A DNA stretch of 20,636 nt from Rhodococcus sp. IEGM 1379 (GTDB lineage: Bacteria; Actinomycetota; Actinomycetes; Mycobacteriales; Mycobacteriaceae): the NCBI RefSeq assembly GCF_030056815.1, contig NZ_JASHKR010000047.1:16233-36868 (forward strand). Direction: 5' to 3'. The position numbers and the translations under genes are program-made. Positions 1,653 through 3,736 of the stretch are shown in pieces; within the stretch, counting starts at the first letter, position 1; the number at the start of each line of letters is the position of its first letter. Under the pieces are notes generated by a model. The model searched no databases. It saw only the letters and a program-made list of their open reading frames with translations, and had not been told where the DNA came from.

Positions 1653-2849
1653 TCAACTGTCATGGGAGTGGTGGTCTCCCATGCGCGGCAGTTCATCCCC
1701 GCCAGCTGTGGGTCGTGTGTTGAGTTCGACGCGGTCGGTGGTCTTCTTAGGCGGCTCGTGTTGCCCGAGGCTGCCGCGGAGGGAGTCGTAGATCGCCACG
1801 CCCTGACCAACCAGGCCGGTGGCTATCTCGCCGAGCCCGTCAGCACCGTTGAGGACGGTCAGGTTCGCCCCCGACAATCCTTGGGCGGCCTGCTTGACGA
1901 TCTCGGGGAGCTGGTCGATCAACAGCCGATCGAGCGCGACCCGGTTGTGCGACGCTGCCGCTTCGGCTTGGATTTTCATCTTCTCCGCGTCGGCCAACGC
2001 CAGGATCCGCACTCGCTCGGCTTCTGCCTCGGCAGGCTTGACGACTTCCGAAACGAGCTCCTGTTGGCGGAGCTCAGCGGCTCGCTGTGCCAGCTCCGTT
2101 TGCATTGCGAGCACTTCCCGTTGTGCCTGCGCCTGCGCCAGCGGTCCTGCCTGCGCCGCTTCGGCCTGCGCCTTGTCGACTTCAGCCTTGTACTGGGCCT
2201 GCACGATTGCCGTCTGCCGGGCGTACTGAGCTTGGTTGCGTTGTGATTCCTGCTCGGCCTCCGCGGCTGCCTGGTTTGCCCTTGCCTGGGCGATCTGGGC
2301 TTGCTGTTGGATCGCGGCGTTGTGTGGAGCGGACATCGCGCGGATGTAGCCGAGGGAGCCGTCGTCGATGGACTGGATCTGTAGGGCGTCGACGGTCAGC
2401 CCGATTTTGACCATCTCTTCCTTTGATCCGTCGAGTACTTCTGTCGCCAGTTTCTGGCGTTCCTTGATGATCTGCTCCACGGTCATCGATCCGATGATCG
2501 AGCGCAGATGTCCGGCGAAGATTCGACCGGTGAGTACGGACATTTGGTCTTGGTCGGAGAGGAAGCGTTGACCTGCGCTGATGATGCTCTCGGTGTCATT
2601 GCCTACTTTGAAGGCAATGACCGCGCGCACGTTGAGGCTGATCCCTTGTTGGGTGACGCATGTTTCCTCCACTTCGGCCTCGCACATTGCCAGTGTGAGA
2701 AACCGGACTTTGCGCAGCAGCGGCATGATGTAGGCGCCGTGGCCGGTCACTACACGGAACGGTGCGTCCCCTTTGCTTCTGCCTCCGGAGATCAGCATCG
2801 CCTCATCCGGCGCAGGCACTCTGTAGCCGAACATGTTTTGGCTCCTCAC
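1653..2849 (-). CDS. SPFH/band-7 domain flotillin-like protein (YqiK/FloT family)
   Basis: 398 aa. The N-terminal SPFH core (VVTGHGAYIMPLLRKVRFLTL..., ISLNVRAVIAFKV, VKIGLTVDALQIQSIDD) is followed by an Ala/Gln/Glu-rich coiled-coil 'flotillin' region (AQIAQARANQAAAEAEQES...). The probable true start is the internal Met of MFGYRV. Confidence 0.85.
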   Translation of the reverse strand: MRSQNMFGYRVPAPDEAMLISGGRSKGDAPFRVVTGHGAYIMPLLRKVRFLTLAMCEAEVEETCVTQQGISLNVRAVIAFKVGNDTESIISAGQRFLSDQDQMSVLTGRIFAGHLRSIIGSMTVEQIIKERQKLATEVLDGSKEEMVKIGLTVDALQIQSIDDGSLGYIRAMSAPHNAAIQQQAQIAQARANQAAAEAEQESQRNQAQYARQTAIVQAQYKAEVDKAQAEAAQAGPLAQAQAQREVLAMQTELAQRAAELRQQELVSEVVKPAEAEAERVRILALADAEKMKIQAEAAASHNRVALDRLLIDQLPEIVKQAAQGLSGANLTVLNGADGLGEIATGLVGQGVAIYDSLRGSLGQHEPPKKTTDRVELNTRPTAGGDELPRMGDHHSHDS

Positions 2850-2855
2850 ATTGTG

Positions 2856-3125
2856 TTATCGCGGATCGATCGTCAGTCCTAGCCCGGGCCAGGGTTCGAC
2901 CTGGAGTGTCCGCGCGCCGCGGATGTCGATCACCAAGACTTCGGTGCCCTTCGGCAATGGATCGGCCGACCATGCCAGGTATGACTCTTTCGATCCGCGT
3001 ACCGCTACCATCACCTCGCCGGCTCCGGCTGATCCGCGGGTCGCCACAACCAGCGAACCGATACAGCCGATTACCGAAAAGTCACTCACCCCTTGAATGG
3101 TCCTCTGATTGAGCCCGTCGCGCAT
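2856..3125 (-). CDS. NfeD-like short membrane protein (OB-fold, YuaF-type partner of flotillin)
   Basis: 89 aa, with an N-terminal hydrophobic segment (FSVIGCIGSLVVA) and a C-terminal OB-fold-like beta region (EVMVAVRGSKESYLAWSADPLPKGTEVLVIDIRGARTLQV). Its stop lies 4 bp before the flotillin start, the conserved nfeD-floT pairing with translational coupling. Confidence 0.7.
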   Translation of the reverse strand: MRDGLNQRTIQGVSDFSVIGCIGSLVVATRGSAGAGEVMVAVRGSKESYLAWSADPLPKGTEVLVIDIRGARTLQVEPWPGLGLTIDPR

Positions 3126-3139
3126 TTGGCTTTACGGGT

Positions 3140-3588
3140 CTACCGCATTAGAGGTATTTCGGCCGGTTCCCTCAATAAGTTTCCGGCCAGGGTCGGTGTC
3201 TGTCTGATCTTGATCACCGACACCGTGCCGTCGACGTAGTTGGTGACGTAGGAGTAGATGTCGTCGGGAGTGATCGCCACCCCCGACGGACCCGTGCCGA
3301 CCGTGATGGTGGTGAGTGAGTGGGTTGGTGGGGGTGGGCGGTGTCGATCACCGACACCGTGTTGCTGCCGTAGTTGGTGATGTAGGTGCGGGTGCCGTCG
3401 GGGGTGATCGCCACCCCGGTCGGATACGTGCCGACCGTGATGGTGGTGAGTGGGTTGGTGGGGTGGGCGGTGTCGATCACCGACACCGTGTTGCCGCCGC
3501 GGTTGGTGATGTAGGCGTGGGTGCCATCGGGGGTGATCGCCACCCCGGTCGGATTCGTGCCGACCGGGATGGTGTCGATATCAGTCAC
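3140..3588 (-). pseudogene. YVTN-family beta-propeller repeat protein, frameshifted (three 40-aa blades)
   Basis: The intact ORF 3214..3588 encodes two blades (GVAITPDGTHAYITNRGGNTVSVIDTAHPTNPLTTITVGT...) and then runs into Pro/Ser/Thr/Arg-rich nonsense. Shifting frame after the second VIDTAHP yields a third blade with a canonical YVTN motif (GVAITPDDIYSYVTNYVDGTVSVIKI) and a stop at 3140..3142. The third DNA repeat carries a 4-bp GAGT duplication and one extra G in a G-run (3313..3340) compared with the second repeat, a net +5 bp. Confidence 0.6.
3214..3588. repeat. Three tandem ~120-bp direct repeats (about 90% identical) encoding YVTN propeller blades
   Basis: Seen directly: repeat units at roughly 3459..3588, 3340..3458 and 3214..3339 share the core GTGTCGATCACCGACACCGTG...GTGATCGCCACCCC...GTGCCGACCGTGATGGTGGTGAGTG. 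Confidence 0.85.
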
Positions 3589-3736
3589 AGGTGTATGTCT
3601 TTCAGTTGTATGCGCCCGGTACAGGGTGCACAGGTGGCCTCGACAACCGCCCGGCGCTCGCCCGTTCCTGACGACCGCAAAACCAGATCACGATGCAGTA
3701 CTCGTGCGGTCGCGTCGTTGCCGCACACGCTCGAGT

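Follow-up and report, generated by a model that had tools for sequence, protein, structure and literature searches.

A frameshifted and truncated YncE-family gene in Rhodococcus sp. IEGM 1379, probably a pseudogene

Does a short beta-propeller gene whose reading frame breaks between its second and third blades still encode a working protein, or is it what remains of a longer gene? The question is raised by gene B, a YVTN beta-propeller gene on the minus strand (3588→3140) of a 20,636-nucleotide stretch of Rhodococcus sp. IEGM 1379 DNA, the whole of which is referred to here as the window. A sequence-only reading of the locus had offered a pseudogene, a slippage-prone switch or an assembly error as options, and had suggested that the gene shares a membrane-associated function with its neighbours, an NfeD-flotillin pair and a giant protein. 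We conclude that gene B is most probably a pseudogene, the non-functional remnant of a gene for a secreted YncE-family/YVTN beta-propeller. The pseudogene option is well supported: measured against full-length relatives, gene B has at least five independent defects, of which the frameshift is one, and another decayed relic of the family lies 9 kb away.

Repeat structure and reading frames of gene B

The frame-repaired translation of gene B matches the YVTN repeat model TIGR02276 (40 residues) with E = 5.4e-26 (90.3 bits, cut-off 27.85), which is far above chance and bears out the initial identification of a YVTN beta-propeller gene; it also matches Pfam Lactonase with 37 bits (cut-off 21.7). 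In the unrepaired sequence, an open reading frame (ORF) of 124 amino acids (aa) is identical to WP_283263447.1, annotated by NCBI as a 'YncE family protein', and WP_283263448.1 has the same sequence as the product of the adjoining 2217-aa ORF. The two proteins are encoded on one 36,868-bp contig, and each forms a singleton cluster at 90% identity.

Tandem Repeats Finder identified an array with a period of 129 bp, 2.8 copies and 86% matches (score 533), in which one unit corresponds to one 43-residue YVTN blade including its linker. Units 1 and 2 share 93.8% identity after the 5 inserted bases are taken out and the 129-bp units differ from each other at 8 positions, whereas unit 3 shows 81-83% identity to units 1 and 2 across its first 96 nt and loses repeat homology thereafter. 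The tandem repeats described earlier as three near-identical copies of ~120 bp are thus present, but their period is 129 bp and near-identity is limited to the first two. The ratio of nonsynonymous to synonymous substitution (pN/pS) between units is ~2.6, with counts (7:1 and 14:2 substitutions) that are too small and were not used as evidence, and the pattern is as would be expected for variable positions on the blade surface.

The linker after unit 1 reads GAC ACC GCC CAC CCC ACC AAC CCA CTC ACC ACC (DTAHPTNPLTT). The linker after unit 2 is longer by 5 bp, and these consist of two separate insertions 12 nt apart, one of which extends a run of four C to five (C4→C5) while the other is a 4-nt tandem duplication. 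The 5-bp indel, the duplicated tetramer and the G5 versus G4 difference that had been pointed out on the forward strand are therefore all present, as two events at 3314-3321 and 3330-3334. Deleting either insertion alone does not restore the frame, which implies two hits. Extension of the run from C5 to C6 gives a 149-aa ORF and a third copy of the tetramer a 150-aa ORF, and the loss of a single unit at either site restores nothing.

In the mod 3 = 0 frame, gene B encodes two blades ending in '...VIDTAHP', followed by a 38-aa junk tail and a stop codon at 3216-3214. The residues 'TNPL' are readable in the mod 3 = 2 frame, and the mod 3 = 1 frame continues with 'TTITVGTGPSGVAITPDDIYSYVTNYVDGTVSVI...' to a stop codon at 3142-3140, which lies 14 nt ahead of the nfeD ATG at 3125, the distance first described. 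A reading guided by homology traverses all three frames within 13 nt, and tblastn with the repaired protein places 3588..3322 in one frame and 3328..3143 in another. The 38-residue tail of the annotated ORF (HQPTHSPPSRSARVRRGW...) is blade 3 translated out of frame. The G+C content at third codon positions (GC3) gives the same picture: ahead of the shift, frame 0 has a value of 0.93, and beyond it this value is seen in frame 1, while frame 0 falls to 0.54. The coding signature thus moves frame exactly at the indels, in agreement with the earlier proposal of a frame shift at the blade boundary with the third blade in the shifted frame. The last 69 nt have a GC3 of only 0.61 in the mod 3 = 1 frame, so the 3' tail lacks a clear coding signature. 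Over 3143-3588 as a whole, GC3 is 0.93, compared with 0.75 in the giant gene, 0.75 in the flotillin gene and 0.70 in nfeD, and this higher value could reflect the codon composition of the repeats or a foreign origin.

Table 1. Coordinates (window numbering) of gene B and its parts, of the second YncE-type relic and of neighbouring genes.
Feature	Position	Strand	Description
YncE/YVTN putative relic (gene B)	3140..3588	-	GTG start 3588, blades 1 and 2, frameshifted linker, blade 3, short tail without homology, stop 3142-3140 in shifted frame
NCBI-annotated ORF, 124 aa	3214..3588	-	Two blades and a 38-aa out-of-frame tail
Tandem array of 129-bp blade-coding units, 2.8 copies	3212..3574		Identified by Tandem Repeats Finder; units 1 and 2 93.8% identical, unit 3 81-83% to these
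Insertion 1, G5 on + strand (C5 in gene), +1 nt	3330..3334		Compared with G4 at 3460-3463 in the preceding linker
Insertion 2, GAGTGAGT on + strand (CACT/ACTC tandem duplication in gene), +4 nt	3314..3321		Compared with a single copy in the preceding linker
Blade 3 and 'VSVIKIRQTPTLAG' linker, mod 3 = 1 frame	3182..3328	-	Homologous to last blade and inter-domain linker ('VSVIAIEQPPTLTG') of full-length Rhodococcus YncE proteins
Non-homologous tail 'NLLREPAEIPLMR'	3143..3181	-	Truncation point of the putative relic; relatives have a ~100-aa C-terminal domain here
Leader of gene B	3589..3650	-	Aligns with the relic A and R138 gene leaders
Relic A, YncE/YVTN family	~12720-12381	-	Leader, GTG 12647 ('MTVLDRPH'), signal peptide in another frame, blade 1, 'THPT' linker
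Giant PQQ/LamG protein, 2217 aa	3737-10390	-	Context, not part of the relic
580-aa partner of giant protein	10433-12175	-	Context, no Pfam match
nfeD	2856-3125	-	Context, conserved pair with flotillin gene
Flotillin gene	1653-2849	-	Context, conserved pair with nfeD

Full-length relatives, a second relic and the probable course of decay

The closest annotated relatives of gene B at the DNA level are plasmid-borne YncE-family genes of R. erythropolis R138 (pLRE138) and Rhodococcus sp. NJ-530, with 74.9% identity across the repeats. Both are single uninterrupted ORFs, and in their products (WP_158510651.1 of R138, 394 aa; WP_230691582.1 of NJ-530, 436 aa) 6-7 blades are flanked by a signal peptide and a C-terminal domain. 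The R138 protein has six blades between its signal peptide (MTVVDRSRLPMRRMRLFLGAAVAVAAALSISVVPASA) and the linker 'VSVIAIEQPPTLTG', which leads to a C-terminal domain of ~100 residues. By blastp, the repaired gene B protein shares 59% identity with residues 167-297 of the R138 protein, which comprise its last three blades and the linker (reading 'VSVIKIRQTPTLAG' in gene B), and the first two blades of the repaired protein share 67% identity with the first two blades of R138. The region of blade 3 and the linker (3325..3182) is matched by tblastn with E = 1e-9. Homology with the relatives ends at ~3182, leaving the last 13 codons without a relative, and blastn with the 3' tail (3215-3100) gave no match among the plasmid loci and 80 genomic loci that encode close relatives of the flotillin (72-92% identity; Mycobacterium, Williamsia, Antrihabitans, Streptomyces and others).

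The 5' end of gene B is altered as well. The alignment of leaders shows that the Shine-Dalgarno sequence of the family, GGAAGG, has become GAAAG in gene B via a 3-nt deletion. After 'GTGACTG' gene B passes straight into blade 1, and because 'GTG ACT G' joins blade 1 directly, ~120 nt coding for the signal peptide are missing. In the paralog, the short direct repeats GTTCTCGA and GTTATCGA occur at the two edges of this region. Gene B therefore combines the +1 and +4 insertions with the absence of both the signal-peptide region and the C-terminal domain, and its two blades in frame, or three after repair, compare with 6-7 in the relatives. Natural beta-propellers have 4-12 blades (PMC3797127), and one chain with only 2 or 3 therefore cannot form a closed ring by itself.

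The blade-coding DNA of the relatives is a tandem array too, with a period of 126 and 84-85% matches in R138; the period of 129 in gene B is explained by its unusual 'DTAHPTNPL' linker. As the DNA identity between blades is high throughout the family, gene B shows no sign of a special recent expansion. The recent repeat expansion proposed in the sequence-only reading was thus read too far into a similarity that intact relatives display likewise (84-85% DNA identity between blades), and the comparison suggests a net loss of blades instead.

No intact ortholog of gene B was found among 5.8 billion proteins, where the best non-self match is 53-64% identical, and a plasmid collection contained distant matches only, at no more than 75% DNA identity, to multi-blade YncE genes. 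Orthologous loci were also sought in GTDB species genomes with the C-terminal 700 aa of the giant protein, and no confirmed relative was obtained.

Nine kilobases from gene B, the window contains a second YncE-type sequence (relic A), which aligns collinearly with the R138 and NJ-530 genes over their 5' ends and starts with 'MTVLDRPH', compared with 'MTVVDRSR' in R138. Its signal peptide and half a blade ('AALTVAATLGGTVGTASADTVIDTSPVGSNPCAVATTP') are readable solely in a different frame (tblastn 12582..12469, E = 3e-7), and the remainder of blade 1 is back in the first frame and ends with the same unusual 'HPT' linker as in gene B. With at least three frameshifts and an end after one blade, relic A is more decayed than gene B. 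The two share 71% DNA identity over 124 nt of blade 1 (blastn, E = 3e-11), and their leaders give a 38-nt blastn match (E = 0.004). YncE-type sequence is evidently decaying in this region. An origin of both relics from one gene split by the insertion of the genes between them was set aside: both possess a leader and a start codon, so that two paralogous copies are the likelier origin, although the match between the leaders is weak (E = 0.004).

The anatomy, the reading frames, the homologies and the lack of conserved neighbours are shown directly, and from them we infer the loss of function and the order and mechanism of the lesions. The ~120-nt signal-peptide region would have been deleted between the direct repeats GTTCTCGA and GTTATCGA, and the 3-nt deletion has eroded the Shine-Dalgarno sequence. 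Since blades 1 and 2 of gene B resemble the first two blades of its relative and blade 3 resembles the last, internal blades would have been lost, presumably through unequal recombination between repeats, leaving three. The C-terminal domain is cut away ~10 residues past the last blade, and the +1 in the C run and the +4 CACT tandem duplication break the frame. Both insertions may be ordinary replication-slippage events that occurred at micro-repeats after selection on the gene had ceased, and they are probably recent enough for the codon signature of blade 3 to have stayed intact.

Several observations weigh against a non-functional relic. Errors of sequencing or assembly could account for one of the insertions or for both. 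The frameshift is young and in principle reversible, given that the codon signature of blade 3 is undamaged and that one step of +1 or +4 restores a 149-150-aa ORF. In addition, small annotated YVTN proteins of about three blades occur elsewhere, for example P0119, which has 189 aa and a signal peptide. Designed two- and three-blade 'Pizza' fragments in the PDB are related to the repeat, and Pizza2 self-assembles into a complete propeller (PMC7337062), so a short product is not impossible in principle.

Alternative explanations of the frameshift

A sequencing or assembly artefact, with the true linker in frame and the gene encoding a cytoplasmic three-blade protein of 147-150 aa, is in our judgement unlikely. 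The source is a draft assembly (a 36.9-kb contig) and the indels sit in a homopolymer and a micro-repeat within a tandem array. Furthermore, similar out-of-frame tails are present in the database YVTN proteins P0038, P0101, P0025, P0075 and P0076, some of which may be assembly errors. However, an artefact would require two separate insertions 12 nt apart, neither of which alone accounts for the shift, and mis-assembly of repeats whose units differ at 8 positions yields chimaeras, not new insertions of 1 and 4 nt. Repair would also leave the gene lacking its signal peptide and C-terminal domain, 3-4 blades and a good Shine-Dalgarno sequence, and would thus not give an intact family member.

A phase-variable (contingency) locus appears very unlikely; in this reading, slipped-strand mispairing at either the C run or the CACT repeat would switch the product between three blades and two, the two-blade form being the OFF or alternative state. 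Homopolymer phase variation has been documented in Mycobacteriales (PMC10334774), blade 3 holds a GC3 of 0.93 in its own frame, and C5→C6 or a third CACT unit would each give a continuous ORF, so that the two states are interconvertible by one slip. The tracts themselves, on the other hand, fall far short of hypermutable ones, for which the threshold is a homopolymer length of 7 or more, or three or more copies of a 2-6-nt unit (PMC10334774); gene B has C5 and a tetramer in two copies. In the 20.6-kb window, G/C runs of 5 occur 31 times, runs of 6 four times and two-copy tetramers 74 times, and neither tract is unusual given how common such sequences are. The linker upstream carries C4 and a single copy of the tetramer, which indicates that the tracts are themselves the products of the insertions, and the gene shows other signs of decay. 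The slippage-prone switch of the sequence-only reading thus has in its favour that one +1 or +4 slip restores the frame, and finds no support in tract length. We give equally little credence to a young reversible switch whose ON state is a cytoplasmic three-blade mini-propeller closing its ring by dimerisation and whose OFF state is a two-blade chain; if true, it would give the designed Pizza fragments a counterpart in nature.

Translation without any switching, either of a functional 124-aa product (two blades and a tail) or of a separate blade-3 peptide (GTG 3280, 46 aa), might be imagined to work through ring oligomerisation like that of Pizza2 trimers. NCBI annotates the ORF as a protein, and Pizza2 and Pizza3 in the PDB are detectably related (E between 1e-3 and 2e-4, and down to 2e-12 for Pizza6), with Pizza2 trimerising into a propeller (PMC7337062). 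The 38-aa tail, however, is an out-of-frame translation of the repeat without a coding signature (GC3 0.54). An AlphaFold model of the 124-aa ORF, computed from the single sequence and of low confidence (mean predicted local distance difference test score, pLDDT, 48), contains 8 strands in residues 5-82 and none in residues 83-124; this confidence is too low for fold searching, and the model was used for its secondary-structure pattern alone. With an eroded Shine-Dalgarno sequence and an architecture shared by no homolog (the ORF forms a singleton cluster), a functional short product is highly improbable.

Programmed -1 ribosomal frameshifting linking blade 3 to blades 1-2 is almost certainly not the explanation: -1 is the required change and no stop codon interrupts the target frame anywhere along the gene, but an open target frame is expected by chance at this DNA composition, no X XXY YYZ heptamer occurs in the zero frame anywhere in the ORF or in any frame within 3350-3290, homology demands all three frames within 13 nt, and the full-length relatives are single uninterrupted ORFs in which the two-frame arrangement is not conserved. 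Even jointly, the switch, the functional short product and programmed frameshifting remain improbable. A diversity-generating retroelement with a template/variable repeat pair was also considered and rejected, as no reverse transcriptase is present among the ORFs scanned and the differences between units are not adenine-specific.

Genomic setting, annotation and comparison with known systems

The damaged YncE-type gene lies between the nfeD-flotillin pair and the giant gene. The nfeD gene is directly upstream of the flotillin gene in 79 of the 80 flotillin loci. A YVTN gene is directly upstream of the pair in none of them, one unrelated YVTN gene being present ~2.5 kb away in a single locus, and the giant gene is likewise absent from all 80. 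Other window genes that were tested showed no synteny with these loci, and neither the 148-nt spacer (3736-3589) nor the stretch downstream of relic A had a blastn match in the plasmid loci or at the 80 flotillin loci. Nfed and flotillin thus look like a conserved two-gene unit within variable surroundings. The flotillin is 72-92% identical to those of pairs in Mycobacterium metagenome-assembled genomes, Antrihabitans and a contig labelled 'Williamsia faeni UNVERIFIED_CONTAM', and the NfeD encoded here is a short form of ~75-89 aa that consists of the OB-fold domain only.

The giant protein belongs to a rare family with ~17 full-length homologs at 32-52% identity, mostly from metagenome or read-archive contigs. 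In three loci with giant homologs (four contigs; L083, L084 and L085), a conserved neighbour of ~550-870 aa without Pfam domains is homologous to the 580-aa ORF; each locus has one or two such neighbours, the 866-aa one in L084 being a weak match. The giant gene and the 580-aa gene form a rare conserved two-gene module. No YVTN, NfeD or flotillin gene was found near the giant homologs in these three loci. PADLOC returned no defence-system match for the giant protein, its 580-aa partner, NfeD or flotillin, and neither PADLOC nor Pfam provided a clue to the function of the partner or of the C-terminal ~900 residues of the giant protein.

The shared membrane-associated function with NfeD-flotillin and the giant protein that had been suggested for the YVTN gene is not borne out by these comparisons, in which an adjoining YVTN gene is found at 0 of 80 and 0 of 3 loci. 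As adjacency is conserved neither at flotillin loci nor at giant-protein loci, the relic is not a conserved partner of either neighbour, and no functional link between them should be drawn. The module of the giant and 580-aa genes is placed exactly between gene B and relic A, and the two YncE relics might conceivably be scars of its integration between or into YncE paralogs. The region as a whole looks strain-specific and variable.

Further features of the window were noted. It encodes an HNH endonuclease (13338-14321, minus strand; Pfam E = 2.6e-12), which also gives weak PADLOC matches to restriction enzymes, and a second, weak HNH-like ORF (19664-20485, minus strand). The ORFs around both are without family match, a setting that fits a variable or mobile region. 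ORFs without an assigned function contain tandem repeats at 16352-16430 (perfect 36-bp unit, 2.2 copies) and 16998-17046 (15-bp unit, 3.3 copies, 94% matches). Just past the stop of the giant gene, within the 148-nt spacer, a weak terminator-like hairpin with a T-rich run is present at 3689-3706 on the minus strand, which is not significant (1 versus 0.6 expected in shuffled sequence). The motif 'TAHPT', taken by eye for the hexapeptide 'DTAHPT', is present in the giant protein as well as in the linkers between the blades of gene B; allowing up to 3 mismatches, the window contains no further copy of the linker DNA, and the shared motif is therefore probably due to chance. No RNA family was detected within the window by Rfam. 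In the literature, strain IEGM 1379 was found in a strain list only, with no details of its sequencing.

Because gene B is a frameshifted and truncated relic on the reading preferred here, WP_283263447.1 would be mis-annotated as an intact 124-aa protein; it should carry a pseudogene flag, its last 38 residues being an out-of-frame translation. The short database YVTN/YncE entries named above (P0038 and the others) start or end in out-of-frame blade translations ('...GHPRLRHQPA', '...PPLRRGGHPGQQQGLCRELQ'), and it seems fairly common for YVTN genes with a frameshift or a mis-assembly to be entered as intact proteins. The locus illustrates how a tandem blade-repeat gene decays, through slippage insertions and possibly through signal-peptide deletion and blade loss. 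Its biological weight is small, as decaying fragments of repeat genes are normal in the variable regions of actinobacterial genomes, and the most probable explanation is an ordinary one, a multiply damaged pseudogene of a known repeat-protein family.

Compared with known systems, gene B shares with the homopolymer phase variation of Mycobacterium tuberculosis (7C tract of glpK, 7A tract upstream of espA; PMC10334774, PMC6667613) the order Mycobacteriales and a frameshift through ±1 slippage in a G/C run. The M. tuberculosis tracts, however, are at least 7 nt long, vary recurrently across thousands of isolates and lie within otherwise intact conserved genes, whereas gene B has a 5-nt run with a second lesion alongside in a truncated singleton gene. 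Pizza2 and Pizza3 (PDB 3WW7 and 3WW8) are likewise two- and three-blade chains with a repeat whose relationship is detectable by sequence, and the Pizza2 trimer forms a six-blade ring (PMC7337062). Unlike gene B, they are engineered and perfectly symmetrical, and nothing suggests that the product of gene B is made or assembles.

Among solved structures, the best match is the YVTN propeller of the Methanosarcina mazei surface-layer protein (PDB 1L0Q, E = 1.3e-58), and Escherichia coli YncE (PDB 3VGZ) matches at E = 2e-6; both have the same YVTN blade. These are complete propellers of 353-391 residues, whereas the window sequence encodes at most three blades. Both propellers are seven-bladed, and in 1L0Q a PKD domain follows the propeller. 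The plasmid YncE genes of R138 and NJ-530 are intact, in contrast to the frameshifted gene B with its missing signal peptide, 3-4 missing blades and missing C-terminal domain, and it is with these genes that gene B shares the TIGR02276 repeat, the leader and start-codon context, the sequence of the first blade and the motif formed by the last blade and its linker.

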